From Candidatus Scatocola faecipullorum (lineage in GTDB: Bacteria > Pseudomonadota > Alphaproteobacteria > RF32 > CAG-239): a DNA stretch of 61,376 bases. Positions within the stretch are counted from its first letter, which is position 1, and the number at the start of each line of letters is the position of its first letter. A model generated the notes under the pieces. It had not been told where the DNA came from. It did not search any database and saw only the letters and a list, made by a program, of their open reading frames with translations. The translations under genes were made by a program, and so were the position numbers. Below are positions 1,456-22,560 of the stretch, in pieces. The stretch is taken from assembly GCA_018714685.1 (NCBI GenBank), contig DVNC01000036.1:1-61376 (forward strand), in the 5' to 3' direction.

Positions 1456-1472
1456 CTTAAGCACTTATACAA

Positions 1473-2164: not shown

Positions 2165-2226
2165 ATTCTGGCTTTAGCTATATCATTTGCTCTTTATTTA
2201 TAACTTTAGTCATAAAAAATAAAACT

Positions 2227-2826: not shown

Positions 2827-2830
2827 TGTC

Positions 2831-3952
2831 TTATCCCATTCCGCTGGTGATTTGGTCTTGCATGTCGAAAACGCCCATAACCGCCCAGGCAATAACGCCG
2901 CCGACGGACAGCAGAGCAACCATGTTCAGAACGCTGGCTTTTTGCTCAATAACATAGACCGATTCTTCCAGCCAGTCATTGGCCAGCTTGTCCATTGCCT
3001 CTTCAAAATTGTCCAGTTCGGAATAAATCTTCAGGTCGGCAATAATCTCCCTGTCCGGGAAATCCAGCCCGGTTTTTTCCAGAGCCTGGCCGAGGTTGTC
3101 ACCGTTATTGACGAAGATGAGCGTCTTATCGATTCTTTCCCGCAGATAAGGGTTTGCATCACGCCGCAGTGCCTGTAATGCGGTTGAAACCGGCGTACCG
3201 CTTTTGACCAGAGCAGACATCGCCAGCAGCCAGCTGATGCCTGAAAAGACTTTATACAACGACCATGGCGGCAAATTGTCGAAAAATGAACGGATTAAAC
3301 CCCGCCAAATGCCGATAGTCAGGTAAATAATCGCCATCACTGTCGGCAGAGCCGCAAAAGCAACCGTCCAGTAGGTTCTGATCCAGTCGGAAACGTCAAC
3401 CAGTGTTTTCGCCGATCCGCGCCAGCGCACATTCGGGGCGGCTTCCTGCATCGGCGGCACCATGTAGGCACCGATACCATACAAAATCAATACCGACATA
3501 AACATCAGGAATGCCGGATAAACGATAGCCCCCACAATCGGACGCACCATTTTGGTCGTTCCTTCCGTTACTTTAATCAGGTTTAATAACGCGCTTTCAA
3601 GGTTAGAGACGTCACCGGTGGAAAGCATCAGTCTTTCACGCGCCGGAGCCCAGCCTTTCAGGGCGTCGGCAAACGTCAAACCGTTTTGCAAAGACTTGGA
3701 CCAAGCTGCAATGGCGATTGCAATCGGCTCGCCTGGACTCTTGCCGCCGTTGCTGGCGCCGTCGTACAGCAAGTCAAGCGCATCCATCAGCGAAAAGCGG
3801 TTAGACATCAGTGAGGCTATTTTCCGATACATCTTCAGTCTTGTCTTGTTAGACATTTTTGTAACAAGTTTGGCATATTGTATTTCAACCGCGCCGACGC
3901 TTTTCATTGCGCGGGTCAATGTCTCGGAACGTTTTTTATCGTCTTGTGCCAT
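2831..3952 (-). CDS. pilR: Type IV pilus inner-membrane platform protein (PilR/GspF/PilC family)
   Basis: 373 aa with two T2SSF-like repeats (SLQNGLTFADAL...AIVYPAFL; NGDNLGQALEKTG) and 3 TM segments. It follows the ATPase, as in R64. Confidence 0.85.
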   Translation of the reverse strand: MAQDDKKRSETLTRAMKSVGAVEIQYAKLVTKMSNKTRLKMYRKIASLMSNRFSLMDALDLLYDGASNGGKSPGEPIAIAIAAWSKSLQNGLTFADALKGWAPARERLMLSTGDVSNLESALLNLIKVTEGTTKMVRPIVGAIVYPAFLMFMSVLILYGIGAYMVPPMQEAAPNVRWRGSAKTLVDVSDWIRTYWTVAFAALPTVMAIIYLTIGIWRGLIRSFFDNLPPWSLYKVFSGISWLLAMSALVKSGTPVSTALQALRRDANPYLRERIDKTLIFVNNGDNLGQALEKTGLDFPDREIIADLKIYSELDNFEEAMDKLANDWLEESVYVIEQKASVLNMVALLSVGGVIAWAVMGVFDMQDQITSGMG

Positions 3953-3961
3953 AAAATCCTC

Positions 3962-5626: not shown

Positions 5627-5634
5627 TTTTTTAC

Positions 5635-7131: not shown

Positions 7132-8398
7132 AGATTGCTCCCTCATAATGCCACTTCTTGCTGGTAACGTCATATTTTATATTATTAATCTCAAGTCCTG
7201 AAAATTTTGTTAATAAATCATTCCAGACCGACGGATTTTGCATCGAGTCAAAACTGAATTTGACTGAACGATATATATTATTGCGCGGCGAAGTATAAGA
7301 AAAACTTGTCAGAGAAATCTCCTGCCCGATAGCCTGAAACATATTGTTCAGTACGTTTTTCAAATCCACGTCCATATATTGCGGCGGCGACGAGATAATA
7401 TCAACCTTATTTAAAGGAACAGAAACCATCATCGTATTTCCGTCATCGGAAACCGATTTGCCCGAAAAATTAATGCCGGACACGTTTAAAGCCTTGTCAA
7501 TCCAACTGATACGGCCGACTTCTCGAGTCCAGAACGTGGTTACACCGCTGGGTCCGCAGGATAAACCGCCGATTTTCCAGCCCGGAGGCATAATTCGAAT
7601 TAATGCATTGATGCCGTCACGACATTGCAACATAATATCTGTCGGGTTATTTAAACGCTCCCACGGCTTTATCTCGGGCGGTTCCTCCACCGGTTTAACG
7701 ATTTTGGGCTGAACCGGGGCGATAATCGGCCGTTTCGGCGGACTGAAAAACAAACTGCTGATAATGCTGGACAGCAGCCAGAAACCGATAATGCCGGAAA
7801 CGGCAATAACCGCAATCAGCTTGGTTCCCCGCAACGCTTTAATCTTTTGCAGTTTGCCTTTGGCACCGCGTTGTAAAAGTTTTCCTAATTCCGGATATTC
7901 GGTCTCTTCAATTTCCCATTCCGGCGGAGCAATTTTGCGGCCCCAGTCCGGCACGGCCAACATCGACAGAAACTGGTTTTTGGCGTCTTCCTCGTTAAGA
8001 AAGAGCATATCGCCGTCAGACAGGATAATATCGTTACGGACGCAGGTGTACCACCAGCCGTTTTTGACTTTGAATACGCCGACGAAAGAAGAGCGGTCGC
8101 TTAATGCTGTAGCCAGAGAAACCGCCGCAGCCGGTGTTCCCGACTTATATCCTTCATGCGAGACGCAAATACCGAACTGCGGCGCTTTGCCCGGTTTGAT
8201 ACAGAAAAGGTCAGCCCCTTCCAAAACGCCTGCGGAAGCTTCTTCCACTTCCGCATACGGATCGTCTTTGTTCTGCAAGGGCTGCCAGAACAAACTGGTG
8301 GCGTAAGACGTTCCTTCGATGTTAATCTCCGTTCCCCAGGAACGGTTAACATTCGAATCAAAGTCTTGATCTTGAAACTTAGCGTCTTCCAGCACCAT
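7121..8398 (-). CDS. pilO: PilO-like (PAP_PilO/PilO2) pilus accessory protein
   Basis: YATSLFWQPL...SLATAL...GWWYTCVRNDIILSDGD cytoplasmic domain, one TM, and a periplasmic PPGWKIGGLSC segment. Directly after the secretin. Confidence 0.75.
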   Translation of the reverse strand: MVLEDAKFQDQDFDSNVNRSWGTEINIEGTSYATSLFWQPLQNKDDPYAEVEEASAGVLEGADLFCIKPGKAPQFGICVSHEGYKSGTPAAAVSLATALSDRSSFVGVFKVKNGWWYTCVRNDIILSDGDMLFLNEEDAKNQFLSMLAVPDWGRKIAPPEWEIEETEYPELGKLLQRGAKGKLQKIKALRGTKLIAVIAVSGIIGFWLLSSIISSLFFSPPKRPIIAPVQPKIVKPVEEPPEIKPWERLNNPTDIMLQCRDGINALIRIMPPGWKIGGLSCGPSGVTTFWTREVGRISWIDKALNVSGINFSGKSVSDDGNTMMVSVPLNKVDIISSPPQYMDVDLKNVLNNMFQAIGQEISLTSFSYTSPRNNIYRSVKFSFDSMQNPSVWNDLLTKFSGLEINNIKYDVTSKKWHYEGAIYVL

Positions 8399-8414
8399 TT
8401 GTTTTTTTCCTATA

Positions 8415-10034
8415 TTAATCTTTCATTCTTGATTCCGGAGATAACGGAGAATCCAGAACCACCGGCGTCAGGATAATGACCAGAATGCTTCTGGTTTTGC
8501 TGGCTGTGGCCGTACCGCCGAGCAGTGAGTTGTTGGCCGAACCGACACCGGATTTTTCACTGGTATTTTCAACCCGTTCATAACCGGTCAGTACCAAAGA
8601 CTGTCCTGATTTCATCGCAACTTCCTGCGTAAACCCGCGGGATTCGATAATCGGGTTCTGAATATATTGTCCGCCGCCTTCGCTGGTTTCGCCGTCGGTA
8701 CGGTCATCCAGACTGACTTTTTCCAACGAAATCAAATCCGAAAGGGTTAGGTTAAACATCAGCATTAACCGTCCGTGTTCCAGAATACGCGGCAAAACGT
8801 CCATGGTAAAACCGGTTTCGATTTCTTCGGTCTCTGTCGAAACGTCATAGTAGCTGGCATCGCCGCCGCTGTTGGTTTTGGTAATTTCCGAAATATAGTT
8901 CTGCTTTTTAACAACCTGAATCGGGGCCGGTTTGTTGTTCAGCGTGGTAACCGTACCGCTGGTAATCAGGTTGGTCGTTCCCTGAGTTGACAAAGCCTGC
9001 AGCGCACCGTTAACGGTAACATTTCCGGGCAGCAGGGTCATTGTCAGGTTCTTGGTGACGTCTTGCCCCAAACCGCCGGCAATACTGGAAACGCCGATGC
9101 TTTCGCCCTGCGGACTTTTCCAAACGGCAGACAAGTCCAAACCATATTGATCGCTGTCGTCAATACTGACCTGCAGAACTTTAACGCTGATGGCCACCTG
9201 ACGTGACAAGCGGGTATTTTGCTCGTTAATGTATTTAGCCACCTTTTTAATGTCGTTCGGTGTTGCGCTGACGGTAATCGTACCGTTGGACGGATCCATC
9301 GTGTATTTTGAATCTTTGTCCAGCATGTTCTTTATGGCAGTTTCAATATTCTTCCAGAAATCCATCTTAGTACTGCTTTGCAGTGAGATGGAAGACGAAC
9401 CGCCGCTGCCCTGTGAAGAACCGCCGACATTAACCGAAAGGGACGGCGTGCTCGGCAGCGTATATAAAACGAAAGTCCTGGTAACGAATTTGTAAAAATA
9501 AATTTCTTTACGGTCATATTTCCACCAAATGCCGAAACGGGAACCGATTTCGTTCAACAGCCCGCTCAACGGTCCCTGATAGGAAACCAGCATCTTGCTG
9601 GGATCGGTCCAGTCCGCGTTGATAGCTTGTGCCGTCGGCTTGTTTTTGGCACCGTTGCTTAAAACTTCTTTTTCCAAATGTGTTGCGTAACTGACGCGCA
9701 TTCCGGTAATTTTGTTAATCATATCGCCGATTTCATACAGCGTAATCGGACGGTTGCTGATTAAGGTAATACCGTCTTTCCCTTCCAGATATGACGGAAT
9801 AGGCTGGCCTTCATATTCTATTTGGCTTGAATCGCCGAGCCAGATATCATTTTTGACGCGAACCACGTCGTCGTTAAGAGCTTTGTCCGGAATTTTGGCC
9901 GTCTCTTTCAGCTGCGTCGTTGCTTCAACCTCGCGGTCAATGGTCGCATCCATTTTGGTTGAAAGCGAACAGGAACCCGCAATTGCGACCATTAAAGCGC
10001 CCAGGCTGTACTTGGTAATCTTATTCATAAGCAT
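8415..10034 (-). CDS. pilN: Type IVb lipoprotein secretin (PilN/BfpB/TcpC family)
   Basis: Lipobox-like IAGSC, YQGPLSGLLNEIGSRFGIWW, Ser/Gly-rich loop, RQVAISVKVLQV, ALSTQG...TTLNNKP, TGFTMDVLPRI, ILVIILTPVV. The start could be 10028, 10034 or 10040; GGAGG spacing favours 10034. Confidence 0.9.
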   Translation of the reverse strand: MLMNKITKYSLGALMVAIAGSCSLSTKMDATIDREVEATTQLKETAKIPDKALNDDVVRVKNDIWLGDSSQIEYEGQPIPSYLEGKDGITLISNRPITLYEIGDMINKITGMRVSYATHLEKEVLSNGAKNKPTAQAINADWTDPSKMLVSYQGPLSGLLNEIGSRFGIWWKYDRKEIYFYKFVTRTFVLYTLPSTPSLSVNVGGSSQGSGGSSSISLQSSTKMDFWKNIETAIKNMLDKDSKYTMDPSNGTITVSATPNDIKKVAKYINEQNTRLSRQVAISVKVLQVSIDDSDQYGLDLSAVWKSPQGESIGVSSIAGGLGQDVTKNLTMTLLPGNVTVNGALQALSTQGTTNLITSGTVTTLNNKPAPIQVVKKQNYISEITKTNSGGDASYYDVSTETEEIETGFTMDVLPRILEHGRLMLMFNLTLSDLISLEKVSLDDRTDGETSEGGGQYIQNPIIESRGFTQEVAMKSGQSLVLTGYERVENTSEKSGVGSANNSLLGGTATASKTRSILVIILTPVVLDSPLSPESRMKD

Positions 10035-10686
10035 TTTCATCCTCCATGGTCTCAACAACTAAGACGCGGTTTCCTTTGTAAAAAGTGGCAATCGGCGCCG
10101 GCCGGGCTCTGGCAAAAGCTCTGATTAACGCGGAGCTGACATCGGCAAAACGGCCGCGGAACATCGCACCGGCCGTGAGCGTGTAATTGCGGTTGGAATT
10201 CCAGATTAATCTCCAGCCGGCTCTTTCGCTCCATTCGGTCAGCAGGTCTTTCAGGGTCTGCCCTTCTTCGGCCAGCCAGTCTTCTACCGGGTCTTCGGCG
10301 TTATATTCGCCGCTGCCGTTAGACATTCCGGTATCGTTTTCCTTGATTTCTTCTTCATAATCGACAACTTCGCTCTCGATAGACGGGGGAATAGCCGCAG
10401 ACATGTTGCTTCCGGCACCGCCGTCAACAATATTCTGGTCGCGCGGCGTTCTTTCGCCGTATTCGCGGTAATCCGCCGCAACTTTCGTATAGTTGACAAA
10501 TTCGCTGTCCTGCATGCCGCCGGCCGGTTGAGCCGCAGCATTGGTTTGGGTGCAGACTTTGTTGCCGTTTTCGTCACATTCGACTTCTTCCGGCGGAATT
10601 TCGACCGGGTGGCTCAAAGTTCCCATGCAGGCGGTAAGGACAAATACCCCCAGTAATCCGGCAGCTAACCGAAAATTTATGCTCAT
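10021..10686 (-). CDS. pilL: TcpQ/PilL-like lipoprotein
   Basis: Lipobox VLTAC. C-terminal WLAEEGQTLKDLLTEWSERAGWRLIW...FRGRF...FYKGNRVLVV is typical of the TcpQ domain. Probable start MSINF at 10686. Confidence 0.75.
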   Translation of the reverse strand: MSINFRLAAGLLGVFVLTACMGTLSHPVEIPPEEVECDENGNKVCTQTNAAAQPAGGMQDSEFVNYTKVAADYREYGERTPRDQNIVDGGAGSNMSAAIPPSIESEVVDYEEEIKENDTGMSNGSGEYNAEDPVEDWLAEEGQTLKDLLTEWSERAGWRLIWNSNRNYTLTAGAMFRGRFADVSSALIRAFARARPAPIATFYKGNRVLVVETMEDENAYE

Positions 10687-10783
10687 ATCTGTGTTTCCTA
10701 AGCTATATTTTGTCATATTTTTACCTATAATACATATTGAAAAATAAATAATCAAGCGTAAGCCATAACTTATTACCAAGGCT

Positions 10784-12733
10784 TTACCAGGCCTTATAGT
10801 AGTCTTGCCACTCGTTATTTTCCTTTATGCCTCCGTTAGAATTGTTGAGTCTTACTGTCCGAATAATAAATGAATTGGGCTCCCTGGTGGTGAAAACCGT
10901 ATTGATTTTGCGGTAATCGACCCCGCTTGACGCCAAAATGTTGTTGAGCAGATTGAGCCGCTTTTGCTGGAGCTCATATGAGCTGCTGCCGTCAATCCTG
11001 ATTTCCAGTCCGACGTTCTTTTCTTCTATCGTCTTGTTGGCAAAAGCCTGCAGCCATTTCAGGGTAACCCCGGAAATTTCGGCTCGGTTCGGTTGGAAAG
11101 CAAGGCGTATTTCGGTCGGTAATATTTTTCCGGTCGTCGCCTTTTGGCGCGATTTTCCGGTAAATTGGTCAAAAAAGCTGGGGCCGCCGCCGTTTTCGTC
11201 TTTGGCGCTGCCGTCTGCGGTCTGGTTTTTGCTGAAAATTGACGTAATGCTTTTAAACAGACCGCCGCTTTCCTTTCCTGAAGACGAAGTTTGCGTCTGC
11301 TTCGCGGGGGCCGGCTGTTCGGCTGCTTCCTGTTCGCTGACTTGCTGCTCGATGTCTTTGTCTTTTTCAGAGGAAACCAGCTGCGGCGTCAGATTGGGGT
11401 CGTTCAAAATATCCTCGGGAATGGGTATCAGCAGGTTGTTGACGACCTCCGAGGCGACTTTAACTTCGCCGCTGCCGCCTTTTTTTAGTTTTTTGTCTGC
11501 TTCGATTGCCTGTTTGACGGCGACATTGTCGGCATTTTTAAAATATGCTTCTTTGGTTATTTGGCGGTTTCTCTGATGCCCGGTGCCTTTGGCCGCAACC
11601 CAGACGCTGTCTTCATTGTTCTTTTCCGCCATAGTTGTCCAGCCGGAAGTTGTGTCGTCTTTCTCTTTCTTTTCTGCCGGCGCCTGATTTTCCGTCATAC
11701 TGCGGATTGTTGCTTTCCCTGTCAGCATGGCCAGCTTATCGGCATTCGGAGTGTCGATAATTTTGGCTTCTGCGGTCTCGATTTTGGCGCTCTGGTCTTT
11801 CTCCAGCGGAATAAGCAGGTTCTCCGGCTCCCCTGCGGAAACTTTTATTTGCTCTTTGGACGGAAAATCAGGCGCCGTATCCGGGTTCGGTGCGGCTTTG
11901 GCGACTTTGAAAGTCGGCGGCAGCGGTTTGTCGGAGACAAGGTTGTCTTCGTTGTTTCCTTCGCTGTCGTCTTCATCGGGAACGCGGGCGATAATAAAGC
12001 TTTCCTCTTCCTCCGCAATCTCGGGGGCGAGAATGTTCTCCGGTTTGGGAGCCGGCTCGGCTTTTTCTTCCCGCGTAATCGGAATGTCCGCTTGCGCCAA
12101 AACCGTTTCCGGCTCTTGGGAAACGGTGGTCATTTTCTTCTTCCGGGCCCGTTCTTCGTTGGGGCGGATAATCTGAACTTTGGCCTGAACGATTTTATTG
12201 CTGAACGGAACCGGGTCTTCAATCGGCTGCTGTAATTCGTTTTCGTCAACCGGCGGAGCACTGCCGATAATATCCTGATAATTTGCCGCAATTTTGTCTT
12301 CCATGGTCTGCGGCTTTTCAGCCGGAGGAGCCGCCGGTTCCGCCTTGGAAACCGTCTGTTGCGGAGCCGGCTGAGGCGCGGAAACGGCCTCTGCGGCCTT
12401 GACAGAAGCTTCTGCGGTTTTTTCGTTCAGATCAAATTCAATGTCGTTGCCGGCAAAAGTCAGAGGGATGGGGTCTTCTGCCGAAACTTCGGACAGTTTT
12501 TCCGTTGAGGGAGAAACGGGCACCGACAAGGCAATTTTTTTAACCGGAATGGTTTTGGCTGCTTTGGCGGGAGAGGGCAGGCTCTTGAAAAACAGGGAAA
12601 TATTTTTGTTGGGAATTTTAATTTCAGTGTCAGAGGGTTTGGAAACACTGAAAAACTCCTTGTTTACGCTCAAAATCGTGAACAAAGAGAAAACAAAGCT
12701 GCAAACAAAAGTTTTTAAACTCGTTTTTCCCAT
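10784..12733 (-). CDS. Membrane-anchored low-complexity protein with a degenerate OmpA-like C-terminal domain
   Basis: 649 aa. N-terminal hydrophobic segment, long P/E/A/K-rich region, C-terminal RLAFQPNRAEIS...LEIRIDG...LQQKRLNLLNNILASSGVDYRKI. Confidence 0.55.
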   Translation of the reverse strand: MGKTSLKTFVCSFVFSLFTILSVNKEFFSVSKPSDTEIKIPNKNISLFFKSLPSPAKAAKTIPVKKIALSVPVSPSTEKLSEVSAEDPIPLTFAGNDIEFDLNEKTAEASVKAAEAVSAPQPAPQQTVSKAEPAAPPAEKPQTMEDKIAANYQDIIGSAPPVDENELQQPIEDPVPFSNKIVQAKVQIIRPNEERARKKKMTTVSQEPETVLAQADIPITREEKAEPAPKPENILAPEIAEEEESFIIARVPDEDDSEGNNEDNLVSDKPLPPTFKVAKAAPNPDTAPDFPSKEQIKVSAGEPENLLIPLEKDQSAKIETAEAKIIDTPNADKLAMLTGKATIRSMTENQAPAEKKEKDDTTSGWTTMAEKNNEDSVWVAAKGTGHQRNRQITKEAYFKNADNVAVKQAIEADKKLKKGGSGEVKVASEVVNNLLIPIPEDILNDPNLTPQLVSSEKDKDIEQQVSEQEAAEQPAPAKQTQTSSSGKESGGLFKSITSIFSKNQTADGSAKDENGGGPSFFDQFTGKSRQKATTGKILPTEIRLAFQPNRAEISGVTLKWLQAFANKTIEEKNVGLEIRIDGSSSYELQQKRLNLLNNILASSGVDYRKINTVFTTREPNSFIIRTVRLNNSNGGIKENNEWQDYYKAW

Positions 12734-13095: not shown

Positions 13096-13434
13096 ATGCA
13101 ATTTTTAAAGAGAAATATTTTAACTCTTTGCTGCCTGACCTTGTTGGTTGCAATGGGTTTGTGCGGGGATGCCTGGGCTGACGGTGCCAGCTTGATGAGC
13201 ACGGCGCAGACAAAAACCCGTAACGTATTCGATAACGTAAAAACCATTACCTTTATTCTGGGTGGTTTCGGTTTGGTCGGTATTGCCTTCCAGGCCATTA
13301 TCGGTAAGGTAAAATGGACTTGGTTTGCCGGCTTGGCCGTTGGTCTGGGTATTCTGGCTGCTGCCGGTTCAATCGTTGAATATGCAACCGGTTCTACCGA
13401 TGCCGGCTTGGCAACGACTTTCGGTAATATTTAA
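13096..13434 (+). CDS. virB2: VirB2/TrbC-family T4SS pilin 1 (probable major pilin)
   Basis: 112 aa, signal peptide ending AWA, two hydrophobic helices around GKVKW. Strong RBS (GAAGGAG). First gene of the virB operon. Confidence 0.8.
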   Translation: MQFLKRNILTLCCLTLLVAMGLCGDAWADGASLMSTAQTKTRNVFDNVKTITFILGGFGLVGIAFQAIIGKVKWTWFAGLAVGLGILAAAGSIVEYATGSTDAGLATTFGNI

Positions 13435-13439
13435 TCAGC

Positions 13440-13536
13440 GCTTAGCTGCTTAATGATAACTAAAGGGAGGGAACTATGGAAAACTTAACGAGACATGCGC
13501 CATATACCCTCCCTTTTGCTTATCTGCTGGCTAAGC
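13440..13536 (+). other. Long imperfect intergenic RNA hairpin between the virB2 paralogs
   Basis: Nested inverted pairs GCTTAGC/GCTAAGC, GATAA/TTATC, AAAGGGAGGG/CCCTCCCTTT and TATGG/CCATA. Confidence 0.65.
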
Positions 13537-13568
13537 TCAGAAATTATTTACGGGAAAAGGGTGAGAAG

Positions 13569-13937
13569 ATGTTGTGCGTAAAATTAAAGAAATTCCTGGT
13601 CTTTTCAGTAATGGTGTTTGCTGTTTCTTCAATTTTATTTGCAACAAACTCCTTTGCTGAAGACAAGGCCCTGTTCAGTGATTTAACCAATCACGGAGCT
13701 AAAATTTTCGGCGGAATGCGGGAGATTATTTATGCCGTGTCCGGTTTTGGTATTGTCGCGATTGCTATCGGCGGCTTTTTCGGAACCCTGAACTGGAAAT
13801 GGCTGGTTGCGATCATCATAGGTTTGGTCGTTATTGCGCTGACCGCCGGTATCATCAACTATATGGTTGACAGCGATGTCATCACCGATGAAATGATAAC
13901 GGACAGTTTGATTAGTGCGAATGACAATCAGAAATGA
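13569..13937 (+). CDS. virB2: VirB2/TrbC-family pilin 2
   Basis: Probable start MLCVK at 13569, signal peptide ending SFA. IIYAVSGFGIVAIAIGGFFGTLNWKWL aligns with pilin 1. Confidence 0.75.
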   Translation: MLCVKLKKFLVFSVMVFAVSSILFATNSFAEDKALFSDLTNHGAKIFGGMREIIYAVSGFGIVAIAIGGFFGTLNWKWLVAIIIGLVVIALTAGIINYMVDSDVITDEMITDSLISANDNQK

Positions 13938-14028
13938 CGGATGATTTAATCACACGGAGCTGAAGGCTTTTATATTATATCGGCTGAAAAAAATTATTAA
14001 AGAGACGGAACTAAACAAGGAGGCTGCT

Positions 14029-16779
14029 ATGAGAAACTTACTTAAATTGATAAAAAATTTATCATTTCTGCTTTGTTTTGGTTTCGGCCTGAATTATATG
14101 GTTGTGCCGGTTATGGCGCAATCAATCGTACCTCCGGTTATAGAGGAAGAAGCTCCCGATGAAGAAGAAATCGGCGGTTGGAGCACACTGGATAAAAAAA
14201 CACAGGAAACAATTGCCAAAAATCAGGCACGTAATGCCGCCGCCGGACAAAGTGACGAAGCTCGGGCAATTTATGATGCACAGCAGCAGCGATATGACCA
14301 GCGTGACGCCTCCAAAGAAAAATATGCCGACACCTTGAATGCCGGGGATGAACGTATCAGAAATATGGAAGCACTGACCGAGCAGGCCCAGCAGGGTGTT
14401 GCGGCGGCTCAGGAACGCTTGAAAAACGCCAGCACGCCGGAAGAAATGAAGGCGGCCAATGAAGCGTTGAAGCAGGCTCAGCAAGATTTAAAAACAGCTG
14501 AAAAAAATCAGAAAGAAGTCGAGAAAGACGTTAAGAAAGACAATAAAGCCGCCAAAAAAGAAGCTAAGAAAGAAGAAAAAGCCATAGCCAAAGCCGAAAA
14601 AGAGCAGCGCAAGGCTATTGAAAAAGAACAGAAATCGGCGGAAAAAGACCTGAAAAAGGCCAATAAAAAGATTGAAAAACTTGAAGAAAAATGCGCCAAA
14701 GGCAAATGCGACGATGAAGATCTGGCCGATTTGGCTGCTGCCCGAGCCAGTGCGGAATCTGCTCAAACGGCTTTAGATGCGGCCAACCAGAAAGCCAATG
14801 CTTTTTATGCTCAGGATGAAGATGAAGCGGCTGCCGAATATATGGCGGAACGAGATGCGCAGGAAGCCTCTATTGCCGCTGCGGAGGATGCCGACGGTAT
14901 CATTGAGCAGGCCAAGGAAGATTTGGCCGAAGCTCAGTCCAATGCGCCGAAAATGTGCAGCGCGGATGAAATCGGCGGTAACGTCTTTCTGTTGATTGCC
15001 TGCAAAGCCACCACCACCTTGGCCGATTTGCGGGTCATCGCTTACATTATTTCCGGTTTCGGTATGGTTGCGCTTGCTTATGCCGCTATTTTCGGAAAAA
15101 TGAACTGGAAACACCTGGCCAACATCGGTATCGGTTTGTTCCTCTTATCGATGATGACGCCGTTTATCGAGTATTTTACCACCGGCAAAGATAATACCCT
15201 GCGTTTTGGTAAATATCTGCCGGCCGGTTTCTCTGATATTCAGGGCAGTGACGGTCAGGTAACCGACTGCGATGAGGATTTGGATAAAAACAGCACTTTC
15301 TGTAATCAGATTTTGCCGGAAGTCACGGTTACCGGGAAAAAGCAGAAGTGGTCACTAAAAGATTTGAAAGGCTCGATTACGGCCGGTTTAAATGCGGTCC
15401 GCAATGCCAGCGATATGTATAAAGCGGCCAAATCGACGGTCAGCAACGTTAAATCTGCGGTTTCCAATATGACCGCTCAGATTAAGAGCGGTGGCGGCGG
15501 ACTGGACGGTATTATTAATGCGGCCGGCGCTGTGGCCAATGCAACCGGTACGATTGTCAACTCCGGGCAAGTTCTGGCCAATAATATTGCGACCAATGCC
15601 GGTAATCTGTCTAACAATATTCGTGACGCCGGTTCAACCAATGCGGCGCGCGAGGCCCGGGCCGAAGCTCAGGAAACACTTGATAAGTTAACGAAAAAAT
15701 GTAATGCCGGTAACTGCAGTGAGCAGGAAAAGAAATATATGGAACAAATGGAAGAAACGGTGAACAATAATAAAACCGGCGTTAATAAATGGCTTGAAAA
15801 TGACGGAGCCGGCGGTGGTTCGACCATTCTCTCCGGAATTAACAAAGTCGGCAACATTGCCAACAATGCCTCGAACTCAGTTAAAAACGTAGCCAATGCG
15901 GCCAATGAAGGCCAGTCTATCGGCGGTGACGGGGCTTTGGGTAAAATTCTCGGTGTCGGCTTCGGTGTCGGAACGGCGGTAACCGAAGGTATGGATACCG
16001 CGGAACAAAGTAAACAAAACGGAATGTTTGACTTCCGCAGTGATGCAACCAAACGGGAAGAACAGGCTAAAGCCGAAGAAGAGGCCTTTAAAAAGACTTC
16101 CGGCTATGTTAAAAACACGCAGACAACCGCTGACGGCAAAAAGGTCGAAACTCTTGGCGACGGTTCGGTTCGCACCACCTCCAAAGACGGTAAGACTGTA
16201 ACCACAGTTAATAAGGACGGCACCACCACAACCACCAAAGACGGTACAACGGTTGTTAAAAGCCCGGACGGTTCCAGAACCGTTACTGACAGCGCGGGTA
16301 ATAAAGTGACCTACGATGCCAAAGGCAACAAGGTTAAAACCGAGCTGGTCAACGAATATAACCGCGCAACGGCTGAAAGTGTCAAAGAAGCCCTGAACGG
16401 TAAGAAGGAAGAAGAAAAGAAAGAGGAGAAAAAGGAAGAAAAGCCTGCGGCAACAACGCAAACAACAGGATCGGATTTGTCGAAAATTAAAAGTGCATTA
16501 GCTGAACAATGTAAGAGCGGAGATAGCATTTGCAAAACATGTGCTAATTCTGTAAAGTCAACAGATCCGAACAAAGCGGCTGCCGAAGCTCAAGCATGTG
16601 TTGAAAAGCTTAATGCAAAACAAGATGAGCTTCAGAAGGAATACGATCAAGAAATGGAAAAATGGTGTAAACAAAAAGGAGTGAAAGAAGAATGCTTTAT
16701 GGCACCGGAAGGTGCAGATGCTAATCTTACTGCCGCTTGTAAAAAATGCGGTTTCAAGATGGCGTCTCCTTCAAAATGA
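14029..16779 (+). CDS. 916-aa protein with an embedded VirB2-like pilin domain
   Basis: Signal peptide, E/K/A coiled coil, pilin-like LRVIAYIISGFGMVALAYAAIFGKMNWKHL...FIEYFTTG (15001-15186), G/A/N-rich helices, DG-T beta-hairpin repeats and a Cys-rich C-terminus. Confidence 0.75.
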   Translation: MRNLLKLIKNLSFLLCFGFGLNYMVVPVMAQSIVPPVIEEEAPDEEEIGGWSTLDKKTQETIAKNQARNAAAGQSDEARAIYDAQQQRYDQRDASKEKYADTLNAGDERIRNMEALTEQAQQGVAAAQERLKNASTPEEMKAANEALKQAQQDLKTAEKNQKEVEKDVKKDNKAAKKEAKKEEKAIAKAEKEQRKAIEKEQKSAEKDLKKANKKIEKLEEKCAKGKCDDEDLADLAAARASAESAQTALDAANQKANAFYAQDEDEAAAEYMAERDAQEASIAAAEDADGIIEQAKEDLAEAQSNAPKMCSADEIGGNVFLLIACKATTTLADLRVIAYIISGFGMVALAYAAIFGKMNWKHLANIGIGLFLLSMMTPFIEYFTTGKDNTLRFGKYLPAGFSDIQGSDGQVTDCDEDLDKNSTFCNQILPEVTVTGKKQKWSLKDLKGSITAGLNAVRNASDMYKAAKSTVSNVKSAVSNMTAQIKSGGGGLDGIINAAGAVANATGTIVNSGQVLANNIATNAGNLSNNIRDAGSTNAAREARAEAQETLDKLTKKCNAGNCSEQEKKYMEQMEETVNNNKTGVNKWLENDGAGGGSTILSGINKVGNIANNASNSVKNVANAANEGQSIGGDGALGKILGVGFGVGTAVTEGMDTAEQSKQNGMFDFRSDATKREEQAKAEEEAFKKTSGYVKNTQTTADGKKVETLGDGSVRTTSKDGKTVTTVNKDGTTTTTKDGTTVVKSPDGSRTVTDSAGNKVTYDAKGNKVKTELVNEYNRATAESVKEALNGKKEEEKKEEKKEEKPAATTQTTGSDLSKIKSALAEQCKSGDSICKTCANSVKSTDPNKAAAEAQACVEKLNAKQDELQKEYDQEMEKWCKQKGVKEECFMAPEGADANLTAACKKCGFKMASPSK

Positions 16780-16803
16780 TTTTGATGCACAAACCTGATA
16801 GCT

Positions 16804-16835
16804 AAAAAAGGATGTCTTTAGACATCCTTTTTTTT
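16804..16835. terminator. Intrinsic terminator after the virB2 cluster
   Basis: AAAAAAGGATGTCT-tt-AGACATCCTTTTTTTT. Confidence 0.85.
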
Positions 16836-17066
16836 ATGTGGTGCCATGCTGCCCGCATTTTCCTTTCCTGTCTTGTTTGTCCCCGTGTTAAGGGATTTTT
16901 CATAAAAAAAGGATATACTGAACAATAAGGGAAACCCTTTCCCGGCGGTTGAGATTCGTTTTTGAAACGCAGGCTCAACGACGGGCAGGGTGTTGTTAAG
17001 TATAGCTTTTTGTTGCAACTAAATGAGATTGCGCTAGAATCAAACCAAACGTCAGGATTTGTCGCG

Positions 17067-17357
17067 ATGAGAGAAATGATATTAAAAGCCGTAGCCAATC
17101 CTCCCAAGATCTTGTGGGGGCCGTTCCTGCCGACGCTTTTAAATCTGGGTATTCAGTTTCCGCTGATGTTTATGTGCATGGGCGTGTTTAAAATGAACCC
17201 GCTGATTTTCATTGTAACGATTGTTGCCGCGCACGGCGTTATTGTGCTCTGGGGCGGCAAAGAACCGCACATTTCCTCCATGATTCAGGCTTTCGGCCAA
17301 TGCCGCCGGATTAGTAACAACCTTTATAAAGAAAAGGGGAATAAATTTGCGCCCTGA
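17067..17357 (+). CDS. virB3: VirB3-like membrane protein
   Basis: Start MREMILKAVANPPKILWGP (compare VirB3 'L.RP....G.P'), two TMs, KEP motif, 96 aa. Overlaps the virB4 start. Confidence 0.75.
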   Translation: MREMILKAVANPPKILWGPFLPTLLNLGIQFPLMFMCMGVFKMNPLIFIVTIVAAHGVIVLWGGKEPHISSMIQAFGQCRRISNNLYKEKGNKFAP

Positions 17358-19779
17358 TTTTGACTTTTTTACGATTTTTGTTCAAGGCTTGTCCAGCATT
17401 GAGGTTGCGGTCGCCGTCATCGGCTTTGTTTCCGCGGCCGCTTTTGCCGGATTATGGGCCACCAAATTAGGCCGGATTATTCTGCCTCAGCCGCAGGAAT
17501 CCCGGGTGGCTGACTTTTTGCCCTTTAACAAGCTGATGGCCGACGGCATAACCATCCGCTGCTATAACGGCTCTTTTGCCCGCGTGTTCAAGGTTGAAGG
17601 GGTCGATTTGTCGTTTGTGACGGATGAAAAAAGCCTGTCCATGATGGAGGCGCGCAAATCATGGATTGATTCAATGTCCGACCTGCAGGTGGTCTGCCGG
17701 GTGATTACCCTGCGCGAAAGAATTTCCATGGAAGCCGACAGCGGCGATTTCGGCAACCAGCTGCTGGAGCAGATTTCCATGACCTGGCGCAACAATTTGG
17801 ACCGCGTTTACAGCAACGGCCACTATATCGTCCTTTCCGTGGCTGACCGCCCTGAGGCGCTGAAAGACCTCAACTACGCTTCTCAGGCACTGCTCGCCAC
17901 TTTGAACGATTACGGCGTTAAACCGATGTTTGAAACTGAAGACAGTGCCGCCGCCGACAGCCCGCTGGCAATTTTTTCCAAGATTTGCAGCCCGCTCTCC
18001 AAGCCGATGCCCAAAGTGCGCGGAGCCGAGGGATATCAGCTCAATGAACTGCTGACTGCCGACCATATCCATTTTACCGATGAAAAAGGGCTGATTAAAT
18101 TCTTCTCCGGCGACAAGGAAATGTTTGCCATTGTTATGGGCATTCGCAGTTCGGGTGATTATATGGACGAGGGAATGATTGCCTCGCTGCTCTCGATTGA
18201 CTGCGAACTGACCATGCTTCATAACGTTAAGCCTATTTTCAAACCGCACGCCCGCGCTTTGCTGATGCAGCAGCAGCGCATGGCCGCAGTGACCAGTTTT
18301 TCGCCGGATGTCATCAACCAATACAGTGAAGCCCTGTCTGCCATTGAAGACAGCGACGCCGACTATCAGGCGCTGACCGAATATGCCATGGACATTATTA
18401 TCAAAGGCGAAACCATGGAGGAAATCGAATTCGGCGAAAGCGAAGTGCAGCGTATCTGCCGTCTTTTCAGCGTTACTCCGGTTCGGGAGGGCTGGGTGGC
18501 TCAGGCGGCTTTCTTTAACCAGTTTCCGACTTATGACGCTTATCCGCGCACTTATCGTTATTTGTCGCGGGTTGTTGCCATGGCCATTTCTTTTGACAAA
18601 CCGTCTGAAGGCCTGCCGAAGAGTGACTGGGGTCCGGGAGCCATTTCCATTTTCCGCACCACTTCCGGTTCGGCTTACCGTTTCCAATTCCATGTTTCAA
18701 CCGAAGATTCCGCTGTGGCCCACTGTTGCATTATCGGACCGACCGGACAAGGTAAAACCACTTTGCTGACCTTCCTTGCCGGACAGGCGATGCGCCACCA
18801 TGACCTGAAAGTTTTCTTCTTTGACCGTCACCGCGGTGCGGAAATCTTTACCCGTGCGGTTCAAGGGGCTTATGTCGGTTTTGACGGCGATGAAAAAAAC
18901 GTCTCTCTTAACCCGTTTGACTGCCGCAACACGCCGAACAACCGCGCCTTTCTCCGCCGCTGGCTGAAGGCGATTACCATGGTTGACGATGCCCTGTCCG
19001 AAAAGGAAATCGGCCGCGCGGTGACCACGGCGTTTGACTATCTGAAACCCGAGGAACGGATTTTGAAAAACCTTTACAAAAGCTGTTTTTCGCCGACCGG
19101 CAATATGCGCCGCGAGCTCTTCCGCTGGATTAATCCTGACCAGTACGGCAACATTTTCAATGCCGAAAACGACAGCCTGGACTTGGCCAGCAAACGCTTT
19201 ATGGCTTTTGACTTTACCCATATTTTTGAAGACGAAACGCTGGCTCCGGCCGTCATCAGCTACATCATGCACCGTATTATGGCCGAAACCGGCGATACCG
19301 GCGTACCCTCGCTGATTATGATTGATGAAACCGCGCCGATGTTAAAACACCCGATGTTCCGCGATTACTTTATCATCGGTCTGCAGGAAGGACGTAAAAA
19401 ACGTCAGGCTTACCTCTGCGCCTTCCAACAGCCGAACATCATTGACAAACTCGGTGTCGGCGAGGTTATTCGCGGTCAGTGTCAAACCGTCATCTTTTTC
19501 CGTAATCCGCAGGCCATGCCGGAAGACTATGCCAACTGGAACCTGACCCAGCGTGAAATCGACTTTATTTTCGGCAAAAGCTACCGCGATTTTCCTTATG
19601 CGATTTTGCTTTCCCGCCCGGCAACCGGTGAATCTGTTATTCTGGACGTCGATTTAAGCGGTCTCGGGCCGTATCTGAAACTGTACAATTCCGGCCGTAA
19701 GAACGTTCTGCTGGTTGAAGAACTGATTAAGGAATACGGCGAAGCGAACTTTGTTACAAAATATTTAAATATTGGCTGA
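17347..19779 (+). CDS. virB4: VirB4 ATPase
   Basis: 810 aa (TTG start). YRFQFHV...HCCIIGPTGQGKTTL, FFFDRHRGAEIF, LNPF, AFDFT, IMIDE, GRKK...AFQQP, QCQTVIFFRNP. Confidence 0.93.
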   Translation: MRPDFDFFTIFVQGLSSIEVAVAVIGFVSAAAFAGLWATKLGRIILPQPQESRVADFLPFNKLMADGITIRCYNGSFARVFKVEGVDLSFVTDEKSLSMMEARKSWIDSMSDLQVVCRVITLRERISMEADSGDFGNQLLEQISMTWRNNLDRVYSNGHYIVLSVADRPEALKDLNYASQALLATLNDYGVKPMFETEDSAAADSPLAIFSKICSPLSKPMPKVRGAEGYQLNELLTADHIHFTDEKGLIKFFSGDKEMFAIVMGIRSSGDYMDEGMIASLLSIDCELTMLHNVKPIFKPHARALLMQQQRMAAVTSFSPDVINQYSEALSAIEDSDADYQALTEYAMDIIIKGETMEEIEFGESEVQRICRLFSVTPVREGWVAQAAFFNQFPTYDAYPRTYRYLSRVVAMAISFDKPSEGLPKSDWGPGAISIFRTTSGSAYRFQFHVSTEDSAVAHCCIIGPTGQGKTTLLTFLAGQAMRHHDLKVFFFDRHRGAEIFTRAVQGAYVGFDGDEKNVSLNPFDCRNTPNNRAFLRRWLKAITMVDDALSEKEIGRAVTTAFDYLKPEERILKNLYKSCFSPTGNMRRELFRWINPDQYGNIFNAENDSLDLASKRFMAFDFTHIFEDETLAPAVISYIMHRIMAETGDTGVPSLIMIDETAPMLKHPMFRDYFIIGLQEGRKKRQAYLCAFQQPNIIDKLGVGEVIRGQCQTVIFFRNPQAMPEDYANWNLTQREIDFIFGKSYRDFPYAILLSRPATGESVILDVDLSGLGPYLKLYNSGRKNVLLVEELIKEYGEANFVTKYLNIG

Positions 19780-19858
19780 TATGCATATTAGGCGTTTATA
19801 AATGGCGCAAATTTTGGTATTATTAAAATATACGGTTACTTGGCGTATGGAGGTTGCA

Positions 19859-21802
19859 ATGAGTATTTTAAAACATCAAAAACTGATAACCCTGTTCGGG
19901 TTGTCATTGCTCATGTCTCTGTCCTCTCCGGCACAGGCGCAATGGCCTACGCTGGATTTGACTGCAATTAAAGAGGGAATTTCCTCCAAAATCGAACTGG
20001 TCAAACAGTCCAAAATCGTAACCGAAGCCACCAAACTGGGTGGCAAAATGAACAGTGCCATCGGCGATGCCAAATCCTCCGTAACCAAATTTGCCGGTGA
20101 CAACCTCGAAAAAGCCAAGAAAAAAGCCGAAAAACTCCAGAAAGAAAAAGAACGCCTGGAAGAAAAGAAGAAAAAATTAGAAGAGAAAAAAGAAAAACTC
20201 GAAAAACAGAAAAAGAAAATTGAAAAAGCCAAAAAGGCCATGGAAGAAGCCAAAAAACTGAAAGAAGACGCCGAAAAGAAAATTCAGGAAGGCAAAGACA
20301 TGGTCAACGACGTCAAATCTCAGGTTGACGAGGCCAAACAAATGGCTGCCGACGCTCAGGCTGCGGTAAACGATGCCAAAGCAACCGCACAGGGAGCAAT
20401 TGCCGATGCCAAGTCAACGGTCGGTGAAGTAAAATCAACCGTCAACGACGCCAAATCGACAGTCGGCGATGCCGTCGGAACCGTTCGTGAAGAAAAGAAC
20501 GAACTCCAGTCGGCCATTGGCGGACAATCCGGCAGTGCCGCCGCCGACAGCAGTTTTGTCGATGACTATGTTGCACAATATGAAGCCGGAATCAATTCTG
20601 ACGCAAAGATTTATGAACAGATGCCGGCTGCAGATTCTGAAGTCGTGTCTGAAACGCTTCCTGCCGCCGGCGATGTTGCCGCTGAACCGGCAGATGAAGC
20701 CGAAACAGCTCTTGCGCCTGCTGCCGGAGACATGTCGGCTGTGGTTGCCCCGGAAGATATGTCGGCGCAGCAGCCTGTTGCCGCGGTTGCCGGCGCAGCT
20801 CAGACGGTCACCGGCGGAAAACAACTCAATCGCCGTCCGTTCGGCCGCAAAGATATGACAGCCGGAACTGCCGCTGTCCAATCGTCGGCCGTTTCAACCG
20901 TAACCGGTACCCTTCAGACAGCTCCGGCTGCGGTTTCCTCAGCAGCAACCGGTCAAGCCGCAACTCCAGCAACATCGGCAGCAACGCCGTCAGCCGCTGT
21001 TGAAACCGCTCCTGCCGCGGTTAAAACCCAGGCCGTCGGCCGCAGCATTCGCACCCGCGCTTCAGCAGCCCCGTCCGCAGTTTCCGCAGCAGCAACCGGT
21101 CAGGCTGCAACTTCGGCAACATCGGCAGCAACGCCGTCAGCCGCCGTTGAAGCCGCTCCTGCCGCGGTTAAAACCCAACCGGCCAGACGCAGTTTCCGCC
21201 AGCGCGCAACGATAAAAAAAGACAATCAGGCTTCGCTCTTTGAGCTGAAACAATCCGTCAATCTGGCTGCCGGCAGCTATTCCGAAACCCTGATGTTCGG
21301 TGCGGAAGACAGCGGGGAAAGCATTCCCGACGGTGTAATTCATAACGGCGAATATGAAGAGACGATTATTCCAGACACGATTGTTGACTATTGCAACATC
21401 GGGGTTAATCAGCTGCAGGATACTTCGGTTATGCAGAACTGCCTGAAACAGTTGATTACCCACCAGTCTGACAGTGACAATCAGGTTGCGGAGGAAGGCA
21501 AAGCGCTATTCACCAAAGCTACGGCGGAAATTGCCATAGCAACGGTAGCCGAAAGCATGCAGCAAAAGGTTATTGCCGCCAAATATCAGGAACAGGTACA
21601 GGACAAACGGGAAGAAACATTGGCCAGCGCTTCAACGTCGCGTGATGACTCCGGCGGCTTGGCCATGACCAACAGCGGCGAGCAAACGCTGCTTAACGCC
21701 TTAAGCGCAATGGCTGCGGCTCAGTTAAGCATTGACGCGTTCAATCAGGTCGGCGGTTTCACCAAGGAAGACCTCGGTGAAACAGAGGGAGAAGATGAAT
21801 GA
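19859..21802 (+). CDS. Secreted VirB5/TrbJ-like protein with a Lys-rich coiled coil and Ala/Thr repeats
   Basis: Start MSILK at 19859 (GGAGG RBS). AQA|QWPTLDLTAI resembles VirB5/TrbJ N-termini. Located immediately after virB4. Confidence 0.55.
   Translation: MSILKHQKLITLFGLSLLMSLSSPAQAQWPTLDLTAIKEGISSKIELVKQSKIVTEATKLGGKMNSAIGDAKSSVTKFAGDNLEKAKKKAEKLQKEKERLEEKKKKLEEKKEKLEKQKKKIEKAKKAMEEAKKLKEDAEKKIQEGKDMVNDVKSQVDEAKQMAADAQAAVNDAKATAQGAIADAKSTVGEVKSTVNDAKSTVGDAVGTVREEKNELQSAIGGQSGSAAADSSFVDDYVAQYEAGINSDAKIYEQMPAADSEVVSETLPAAGDVAAEPADEAETALAPAAGDMSAVVAPEDMSAQQPVAAVAGAAQTVTGGKQLNRRPFGRKDMTAGTAAVQSSAVSTVTGTLQTAPAAVSSAATGQAATPATSAATPSAAVETAPAAVKTQAVGRSIRTRASAAPSAVSAAATGQAATSATSAATPSAAVEAAPAAVKTQPARRSFRQRATIKKDNQASLFELKQSVNLAAGSYSETLMFGAEDSGESIPDGVIHNGEYEETIIPDTIVDYCNIGVNQLQDTSVMQNCLKQLITHQSDSDNQVAEEGKALFTKATAEIAIATVAESMQQKVIAAKYQEQVQDKREETLASASTSRDDSGGLAMTNSGEQTLLNALSAMAAAQLSIDAFNQVGGFTKEDLGETEGEDE
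20921..21208 (+). repeat. Intragenic tandem duplication, 2 x 147 bp (49 aa)
   Basis: APAAVSSAATGQAATPATSAATPSAAVETAPAAVKTQ at 20921 and APSAVSAAATGQAATSATSAATPSAAVEAAPAAVKTQ at 21068. Confidence 0.9.
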
Positions 21803-22560
21803 TAAAGCGCTTCGTCACATATTGGGCTTTGCCGCTGGCGATGTTGGGCTTTTCCTCCGTCGCCCGGGCGGACATTGAGGCTCCGCAGACAGTAATAGGT
21901 ACGGTTAAAACCGGTATTAAGGAGGCCGAAAGCATTCAGCACGACCTGAATGAAATTCAGGCGGATCTGCGTTCTGCGGCTGAAGGCGTTGCCGGGCCGA
22001 TAAAAGATGCCGCTAAAACGGTAAATGACGTTAAAAACGAAGCTCAAAGCAATATTCAGGCCGTTAAGGACAAAGCAGATGCCGCCAAAAATATTGCCAG
22101 CGACCCCGAAGGCGCTTTAAATACGATGGGCGGCAAGCTGCCCGGTTTTATGACCACGGTTGATACCAATGATTCCGGAGAACTTCGGGATGCGGTCAAA
22201 ACCAACTATTTTACCCAGCGGCCGAAGAGTTCGGTTTCTGCCGACGGACAGGCCGAAGCGGTCAATTCCGTTGAAGTGACCAAGGAACAGGATGAAAAAA
22301 TGGCGGCCGTTCAGCGTGAAAACTTTGCCAACCTTTATGCGCAGGCTTTTACAATCCGCACCAATCTTGCCAAAGAAAAGTCGGAAGACAAAGAGCATAA
22401 GGACAGTCGGGAAATTCTCCAAAACACTAAGGAAATCGCGCTCAGAATGGAAGAACGTTGGCGCCGGATCATGATTATTAACGCTGCCCTGTTTGAGTTC
22501 AAAACCACGCAAAGCAGCCGCCAGTTCTCTTTTGTGCCGGAGGAGGATGAAGATGAATAA
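21799..22560 (+). CDS. Secreted helical protein (VirB5-position paralog 2)
   Basis: 253 aa, signal peptide ending ARA, helical content, translationally coupled (ATGA overlap). Confidence 0.6.
   Translation: MIKRFVTYWALPLAMLGFSSVARADIEAPQTVIGTVKTGIKEAESIQHDLNEIQADLRSAAEGVAGPIKDAAKTVNDVKNEAQSNIQAVKDKADAAKNIASDPEGALNTMGGKLPGFMTTVDTNDSGELRDAVKTNYFTQRPKSSVSADGQAEAVNSVEVTKEQDEKMAAVQRENFANLYAQAFTIRTNLAKEKSEDKEHKDSREILQNTKEIALRMEERWRRIMIINAALFEFKTTQSSRQFSFVPEEDEDE

Follow-up and report, generated by a model that had tools for sequence, protein, structure and literature searches.

VirB2/TrbC pilins of type IV secretion systems (T4SSs) measure about 70–120 amino acids (aa) in their mature form. They are regarded as small, uniform building blocks, and contact with the target is ascribed to VirB5 or to outer-membrane adhesins. 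The stretch of DNA analysed here, called the window, comprises 61,376 nucleotides (nt) of contig DVNC01000036.1 of Candidatus Scatocola faecipullorum, an alphaproteobacterium of the gut that is uncultured (assembly GCA_018714685.1), and carries the genes of a T4SS. The third pilin gene of this system is an open reading frame (ORF) of 916 aa, hereafter the giant. Can such a large protein be a pilin, and what would its extensions do in the secretion system? An earlier reading of the letters alone, the original prediction, had taken it for a VirB2 pilin domain embedded in a multidomain protein. Judged by its sequence, the giant is the third VirB2/TrbC paralogue of the window's T4SS, with elongated modules added on both sides of the pilin module. 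It may be exposed on the T4SS pilus as a minor pilin of modular build, perhaps at its tip in a system with undetectable VirB5; we put the probability of this reading at about 0.45, a little short of even odds.

The pilin module

The giant is the third gene of a pilin1-pilin2-pilin3 array that precedes virB3/virB4. An AAGGAGG ribosome-binding site, read from the sequence, lies 7 nt upstream of its ATG. The three genes and the module are located as follows.

13096..13434, + strand: pilin 1, 112 aa, canonical VirB2/TrbC pilin (Pfam TrbC 37.1 bits; pilin-1 clade)
13476..13937, + strand: pilin 2, 153 aa as listed (Pfam TrbC 30.5 bits; pilin-2 clade)
14029..16779, + strand: giant pilin 3, 916 aa (entire ORF, stop codon included)
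14974..15231, + strand: VirB2/TrbC pilin module of the giant, residues 316–401 (hhalign, BLASTP, AlphaFold2)

The segment 15001–15186, which corresponds to giant residues 325–386, had been aligned by eye with both small pilins. This resemblance was borne out by BLASTP, in which the giant matched pilin 1 over residues 333–391 (36% identity, E 6e-11) and pilin 2 over residues 334–382 (45% identity, E 6e-12). A profile comparison by hhalign, of a 65-sequence alignment of the giant's family with 28 small pilins (of these, pilins 1 and 2 passed Pfam individually), gave a probability of 99.3% and an E of 8.8e-21 over 87 columns. Here, giant residues 316–401 correspond to pilin 1 residues 30–112, i.e., to the whole mature pilin including alpha1. 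The check with a TrbC/VirB2 hidden Markov model (HMM), suggested with the original prediction, gave a divided answer. Pilins 1 and 2 both exceed the gathering cut-off of Pfam TrbC (PF04956), 27.9 bits. The giant scored 17.3 bits (E 0.0057, profile positions 47–88 of 98) in hmmscan and 21 bits in a six-frame search of the genome, both under the cut-off. Since the homology is significant in both BLASTP and hhalign, the similarity whose lack was to count against the original prediction is present.

In the small pilins, F45, G57-F58-G59, G70, G83-L84 and Y96 never vary, and W74 is conserved in at least 90%. Their counterparts in the giant, read by eye from the aligned rows, are F320, G343-F344-G345, G356, G369-L370, Y382 and, for the tryptophan, W360. 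Two AlphaFold2 (AF2) models were built: a full model on the 65-sequence alignment, and a second one of residues 306–700 on 101 sequences. The full model has a mean predicted local distance difference test score (pLDDT) of 70.1 and a predicted template modelling score of 0.48, so the relative placement of its domains is unreliable. Within the pilin module, alpha1 and the hydrophobic helices 319–354 and 360–383 were predicted, with a pLDDT of about 82 in the domain model. Both hydrophobic helices are joined by a basic loop, K357-M-N-W-K361-H362, of which K357 is invariant and K361 at least 90% conserved in the 65 sequences. At the level of sequence, the presence of a complete VirB2/TrbC pilin module in the 916-aa ORF can be regarded as confirmed.

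The giant thus shares with the VirB2/TrbC/TraA pilins (PF04956), such as that of the Agrobacterium tumefaciens T-pilus, homology over the mature pilin, the alpha1 helix, the two-helix hydrophobic hairpin with its basic loop, the GFG, GK..WK, GL and EY positions, and a gene location in the T4SS operon before virB3-virB4. Unlike them, it stays under the Pfam cut-off and has 916 aa instead of a small size with an adjacent signal peptide; its signal peptide and module lie about 285 residues apart, and 520 residues are added at the C-terminus.

Pilin 2 carries a 31-residue N-terminal extension (13476–13568, + strand) ahead of an internal ATG at 13569 (MLCVKLKK...), which may be its true start. Its orthologues are divided between long and short forms, and several begin at MLxx in the alignment.

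The extensions and their variation between strains

From the N- to the C-terminus, the giant consists of a signal peptide, a coiled coil of ~260 aa, the pilin hairpin, a helical-hairpin domain of ~290 aa, a nine-strand beta-meander and a disulfide-rich tip.

14029..14118, + strand: Sec-type signal peptide, residues 1–30 (read from the translation)
14161..14943, + strand: N-terminal coiled-coil rod, residues 45–305 (AF2)
14692..14709, + strand: first C-x-x-G-x-C turn, C222/C227 (regular expression; AF2 turn 224–228)
15214..16098, + strand: post-pilin helical-hairpin domain, residues 396–690 (domain HMM; AF2)
15700..15717, + strand: second C-x-x-G-x-C turn, C558/C563 (regular expression; AF2)
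16099..16368, + strand: nine-strand beta-hairpin meander with DG/T-rich repeats, residues 691–780 (AF2)
16462..16656, + strand: variable tip cassette, residues 812–876 (121-sequence alignment; tblastn coordinates)
16474..16776, + strand: Cys-rich helical tip, residues 816–916, eight Cys (AF2; Cys count)

The N-terminus shows, by eye, a basic n-region, a hydrophobic core and V-M-A preceding Q31, and cleavage is expected after A30. The flanks of the pilin module are as originally described, with long helices over residues 45–305 (pLDDT ~90–97) and 521 residues after the module. The rod is made of helices 76–133, 137–223, 229–259 and 264–305 (pLDDT 89–97), two of which are joined by the first C-x-x-G-x-C turn. 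After the pilin module, residues 400–670 are helical in both models, mostly at low confidence; the hairpin 538–580 around the second C-x-x-G-x-C, already confident in the full model, reaches a pLDDT of 82–97 in the model of residues 306–700. A motif KL..KC..G.C...E had been claimed on both sides of the pilin domain. The core of this claim holds, as C-x-x-G-x-C follows KL..K at 222 and 558, while the full pattern with E at +4 occurs only at 553. KCxxGxC is present in the family consensus. Since both copies are predicted at turns between long helices, the repeated motif may represent a disulfide-stapled hairpin turn. The post-pilin domain also contains a Gly-rich hydrophobic, glycine-zipper-like stretch, GKILGVGFGVGTAV (15940–15985, residues ~638–652), which is conserved with the family consensus LGxxLGxxxGxGTA.

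The DG/T-rich hairpin repeats were recovered in the model as nine beta strands at 694–772 (pLDDT 89–94). The tip is helical over 816–906 (pLDDT 71–86), with eight Cys within 828–907. It had been called AT-rich and Cys-rich; the second term is accurate and the first needs tempering, since the last 250 nt have a guanine-cytosine (GC) content of 40.4%, compared to 42–54% elsewhere in the gene, and are only mildly AT-rich. After the signal peptide, 16 Cys are present and locally paired (222/227, 310/325, 414/425, 558/563 and the eight of the tip), with C310 and C325 at least 90% conserved. The predictions show a thin rod or sheet for each of the added modules.

With the full model, Foldseek found no match at E<=1e-3. 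The best match of the beta meander was the single-layer beta-sheet of TCP10/G-box (4bxr_B, E 3.2e-3); TCP10_C/G-box (PF07202) has no Pfam match in the giant and matches 5 of 95 relatives. The beta-flower/DUF3659 repeats (PF21785, PF12396) have no Pfam match in the giant either, and BLASTP of residues 691–916 against a 1305-aa neighbour with such repeats gave a best E of 0.003. An ESM Atlas search with the C-terminal 521 residues returned no usable match. The PDB sequence-profile search, run with the 65 sequences, listed no solved VirB2 structure among its matches; its weak compositional matches of chemoreceptor and coronavirus HR1 helices to the post-pilin helices (best E 5.4e-4) were rejected. 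The same applies to the generic long helical hairpins found by VIA-align with the model of residues 306–700, whose Z of at most 9.7 is below the meaningful level for helical models.

Conservation was compared at two distances. The distant set holds the 50 relatives, of 64 rows, with <45% overall identity to the window's protein. The close set holds 121 near-identical sequences, the query and the 120 best of 247 database matches; these 120 show 81–100% identity over the aligned segment and are 794–959 aa long. Median identity in the distant set and mean pairwise identity in the close set are as follows.

Pilin module: 60% (distant); 0.997 (close)
Post-pilin domain: 33%; 0.973
N-terminal coil: 21%; 0.784 for residues 101–305, with insertions and deletions, a length of 83–209 aa and 92 alleles
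Beta region: 22%; 0.979
Tip: 11%, covered by only 11 distant rows; 0.723 for residues 816–916

The pilin module is the best-conserved part across the distant relatives. Between near-identical strains, the coil and the tip are the most variable parts, and the variability of the tip that was to be checked across strains is indeed found. It takes the form of two discrete cassettes at residues 812–876, with conserved flanks and four Cys in each. Over these residues, 65 sequences are identical to the window, and the three commonest other strings occur 17, 10 and 4 times. Over residues 800–916, strings of the second type occur 12, 7, 3, 3, 2 and 2 times, besides singletons. In run X6, the sequence of a loose end at 16462 was read by eye as SNDVMTDAD, with which the second cassette begins. 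A tblastn search with the alternative alleles revealed no silent tip cassette in this genome (best E 1.7); in this assembly, the tip variation is therefore allelic between strains. Tandem DNA repeats were considered as the source of the coil-length polymorphism and rejected, since only short, weak arrays are present, insufficient alone. Part of the length variation may be noise of short-read assembly in a repetitive region.

Relatives of the giant

With the giant protein as query, 27 of 41 related genomes were matched at E<=0.001: 13/13 of the same genus, 24/24 of the family when the window's genome is excluded, and 2/16 of other families of the class. Six other genomes of the genus have matches without internal stop at 60–65% identity, covering at least ~70% of the query (residues 90–761 or more), and four further genomes match at 35–36% identity. 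In 20 of the 27 loci, two small pilins are followed by an extended one (>=250 aa), four loci have a small third pilin (124–142 aa), and three are cut by a contig end.

The lengths of the third pilins form a series: 124–142 aa, 373–540 aa, 1459 aa in one genome (G024) and 770–1280 aa in the window's genus, where the 770-aa ORF begins at a contig end and is possibly cut. In the 373–540-aa forms, the module lies at residues ~29–131, right after the signal peptide, and in the genus forms at 110–649. A quick maximum-likelihood tree of 70 pilin modules (87 columns, many forks unresolved) shows three groups. The giant's group of 23 rows (SH-like approximate likelihood ratio test 97) consists of all 20 extended forms and three small third-position pilins. 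Its member in G021 has the canonical pilin form, with 124 aa and a signal peptide (AYA|ADNIF) immediately before alpha1.

To place the extensions, the 150 best representatives of the breadth search described below were scanned with domain HMMs derived from the alignment.

Post-pilin helical domain: 94/150
N-terminal coil: 34/150
Beta meander: 21/150
Tip: 9/150

The post-pilin domain was also found in the 373–540-aa third pilins of other genera. It is therefore the oldest addition, and the N-terminal insertion, the beta meander and the tip are later ones. In this lineage, a canonical pilin paralogue has gained domains stepwise, from 124 to ~400 and then to ~900–1450 aa.

In a search of 1.84 billion cluster representatives with giant residues 300–700, 403 proteins matched at E<=0.001, of which 177 at <=1e-10 and 46 at <=1e-30. 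The best 150 of the 403 have the following lengths, with 125 of at least 300 aa.

<200 aa: 17
200–299 aa: 8
300–599 aa: 71
600–999 aa: 38
>=1000 aa: 16

Pfam TrbC matched 61 of 95 scanned relatives (all >=250 aa) at E<=0.01, and the other 34 have no match. Such numbers and lengths point to extended pilins as a widespread, unannotated class of modular T4SS pilins. From the opposite direction, a PF04956 search of 201 genomes across the class gave matches in 47; of its 77 match rows, 12 fall within frames that run for at least 300 aa from stop to stop. Eleven such long-frame loci were fetched. The HMM of the lineage recognised ORFs in five of them and found nothing in the other six. The five comprise two forms with a C-terminal module (570 and 442 aa), one with an N-terminal module (428 aa), a six-gene array and a 1073-aa relative of the same family. 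In the two C-terminal-module forms (L034 973–2685 in G057, 570 aa; L036 2498–3826 in G056, 442 aa), the module stands at the extreme C-terminus after ~370–450 aa, the reverse of the arrangement in most extended forms. The array of six pilin genes (L040 1199–4126, G199) belongs to another alphaproteobacterial family, and one of its genes has three tandem modules (304 aa). Two or three tandem pilin modules are also seen in the library proteins P0248, P0258, P0223 and P0250.

Literature searches found no published description of an extended, fused or paralogous VirB2 like the giant, neither in general nor in the literature on modular type IV pilins, and nothing relevant on gut RF32 Alphaproteobacteria with a T4SS. 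VirB2 arrays are described in Patescibacteria (PMC12102498), whose accessible text does not mention fusions.

Role of the giant in the secretion system

How could such a protein work as a displayed minor pilin? The Sec signal peptide would be removed, and the two hydrophobic helices would be embedded in the inner membrane with a cytoplasmic basic loop. Both extensions would consequently be periplasmic, where the 16 cysteines could pair. The T4SS would then extract the giant as any VirB2 and build it into the pilus as a rare subunit, with both extensions ending up on the exterior of the filament. According to the accessible descriptions of the T-pilus, both termini of VirB2 point outward, and the basic loop is directed towards the lumen, together with phospholipid. 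The likeliest site would be the first, distal layer of the filament, because thin rods ahead of the filament can pass the channel, and packing large appendages along the shaft is difficult. There, the giant could act as nucleator and contact device in place of the undetected VirB5, and the strain-variable coiled coil and tip would be exposed, selected surfaces. The operon position, the export signals, the paired Cys and the variable ends all fit a displayed minor pilin. No match to VirB5 (PF07996) was found at E<=0.1 in the genome, which is 98.8% complete.

Several points weigh against this reading. Incorporation of the giant into a pilus is inferred, and ~285 plus 520 residues may be sterically incompatible with packing in the filament and passage through the outer-membrane complex. 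The giant on its own stays under the Pfam TrbC cut-off. The post-pilin domain is as strain-invariant as the pilin module, which fits contact with the machine and not with a target. The original prediction spoke of adhesin- or effector-like cargo on a minor pilin; the pilin identity of the segment stands, but Pfam, the PDB profile search, Foldseek, ESM Atlas and VIA-align recognised no adhesin, effector or receptor-binding fold in the extensions, so the cargo is inferred as well. Two ORFs in the usual virB5 position, of 666 and 253 aa, could be divergent VirB5 proteins. Finally, the RNA-library contigs described below do not prove transcription and establish neither the ends nor the levels of transcripts.

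The two ORFs just mentioned (19802–21802, 666 aa, and 21799–22560, 253 aa; both + strand) have, by eye, signal-peptide-like N-termini, and acidic tails. Their Pfam matches are only sub-threshold, to helical or coiled-coil families. A relation of the post-pilin domain to them was rejected (BLASTP E 1.7 and 0.35, not significant), as was a relation between the two, whose best E of 0.006 comes from low-complexity helices.

Alternatively, the giant could derive from a pilin but stay in the cell, as a structural component of the secretion machine. Its hairpin would be anchored in the inner membrane or docked on a pilin-binding VirB6/VirB3 platform, and its periplasm-spanning rods would serve as scaffold, ruler or plug of an unusually large T4SS. 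We consider this somewhat unlikely. It accounts for the near-invariance of the pilin and post-pilin domains between strains, the size of the giant speaks against packing in a filament, and paired cysteines are equally compatible with the periplasm. Moreover, other parts of the T4SS are enlarged too, through coils and repeats, as the downstream genes and the VirB6 paralogues show.

16962..17357, + strand: VirB3-like ORF, 131 aa (weak NCBIfam VirB3 match, E 0.026; position before virB4)
17347..19779, + strand: VirB4 ATPase, 810 aa (Pfam CagE_TrbE_VirB, E 2.2e-11)
30446–32089, + strand: VirB9/CagX, 547 aa, ending in a SPOR domain
32086–36003, + strand: 1305-aa protein of beta-flower/DUF3659/RHS-like repeats
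35939–41206, + strand: VirB10/TrbI, 1755 aa, with repeats as in the 1305-aa protein N-terminal to the TrbI domain

On this strand, virB4 is followed by four ORFs that have no assigned family (666, 253, 463 and 1568 aa), by two VirB8 and then by VirB9/CagX, the beta-flower protein, VirB10/TrbI and VirB11. Three paralogues resembling TrbL/VirB6, with 441, 951 and 1239 aa, are encoded on the opposite strand. Like Cag, this T4SS seems to be enlarged in its whole outer part. Variation of coil length and tip cassette between strains would, however, be unusual for a buried periplasmic part, and the giant is grouped with the two pilins ahead of a terminator, separate from the genes of the machine.

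16804..16835, + strand: intrinsic terminator, stem GGAUGUC/GACAUCC plus A/U pairs, followed by a U8 tract (read by eye)

This hairpin folds with -16.9 kcal/mol (z -4.06), and a consensus terminator scan did not list it. The stretch is present in 12 listed runs of five studies. Five runs are recorded as RNA, namely metatranscriptomes of the chicken gut and one of faeces. In each of two RNA libraries from chicken gut, one contig extends from 13091 or 13148 to 16790 or 16798, from pilin 1 through the stop codon of the giant. An RNA contig of a second study ends at 16800, and separate RNA contigs start at 16947–17040. The contig depth of 204–227 for the pilin contig versus 27–53 downstream (X1, X2), with uncovered parts in X5/X6, allows no ranking of expression. 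These data hint, weakly, at a separate transcription unit made up of the three pilin genes.

VirB2/TrbC pilins are trimmed at both ends, as is known for RP4 TrbC. The extensions might accordingly be pro-domains, acting as an intramolecular chaperone or released as a secreted by-product, which are cut off to free a pilin of normal size. The pilin module as the best-conserved part agrees with this explanation, which is nevertheless unlikely: the giant has no hydrophobic, signal-peptide-like stretch directly before alpha1, unlike its small paralogues, no S26/TraF-type peptidase was found among the part of the window's ORFs that was scanned, and the extensions are long, structured, disulfide-rich and accreted stepwise in evolution. 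That a small pilin was falsely fused with neighbouring ORFs by assembly or gene calling, as a source of 62 metagenome-assembled contigs might suggest, is hardly credible given the lengths of the 120 best database matches, the full-length, stop-free matches in six or seven other genomes of the genus, the long ORFs of like build in 20 of 27 loci, and independent RNA-library contigs that cross the whole giant gene with seven differences and no gaps.

For the displayed minor pilin, comparison with known systems is instructive. VirB5/TraC, the minor pilin or tip adhesin, resembles it in the proposed role of a rare, helical, exported tip subunit for nucleation and target contact. VirB5 has no sequence relation to the giant (PF07996 gave no match at E<=1) and no pilin hairpin. 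The fusion of a pilin to a functional module displayed on a filament is a design shared with the modular type IV pilins, as far as described in the accessible text on PilB of Streptococcus sanguinis (PMC8179133). Those pilins belong to an unrelated superfamily, with a class III signal peptide, a single N-terminal helix and an extra module at the C-terminus only. The giant differs, as its N-terminus reads as Sec-type and its hydrophobic hairpin is located at 319–383. If extended pilins of this class are displayed on pili, they would be the equivalent, in T4SSs, of modular type IV pilins.

The window's T4SS is chromosomal and similar to the Rickettsiales vir homolog (rvh) system. In the accessible part of a Wolbachia preprint (10.1101/2025.08.29.673095), the rvh T4SS of Rickettsiales is described as lacking VirB5 and having expanded sets of VirB2, VirB6 and VirB8 paralogues, and VirB5-free pilus polymerisation is termed 'unresolved'. 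The window's system likewise combines three VirB2 and two VirB8 with several extended VirB6, and lacks a recognisable VirB5. As far as these sources go, giant extensions in rvh systems are found on VirB6, such as those of Anaplasma (PMC7648143), and VirB2 is only duplicated, whereas in the window a VirB2 paralogue itself is extended. A pilus-displayed giant would bear on the question of how rvh-type pili nucleate and form a tip without VirB5. A bolder version, which is rather unlikely, can be imagined for rvh-like T4SSs that lack VirB5, in host-associated Alphaproteobacteria with small genomes. Here, one of the VirB2 paralogues would have turned into the pilus tip, with five giants forming the first layer and nucleating growth. 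Ahead of it would stand a bundle of rods longer than 10 nm with a strain-variable, disulfide-rich head, and the conserved Gly-zipper-like helical hairpins would act as a device for contact with, or insertion into, the target membrane. If true, such a tip would explain how these pili are initiated and attach in the absence of VirB5. The variable tip cassettes offer a handle on strain-specific recognition of targets or hosts in gut communities.

Some further features of the genome touch on its secretion and pilus systems. In the 1239-aa protein (49382–53101, - strand), an M23 peptidase and a VgrG3-like C-terminal domain of the peptidoglycan hydrolase type are combined with a weak match to TrbL/VirB6. 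Possibly, this VirB6 paralogue cuts the cell wall, either the bacterium's own, where it would substitute for VirB1, or a target cell's. VirD4-like genes lie outside the window on contigs C57 and C42 of the same genome, and two more TrbC-family pilin genes above the cut-off are found at C41:5971–6255 and C59:8257–8538. A gene cluster for a type IVb pilus (237–12733, - strand), oriented divergently to the T4SS pilin genes, encodes two T2SSE ATPases, T2SSF, PilO, a secretin and TcpQ, together with ORFs of 512 and 649 aa without family match.

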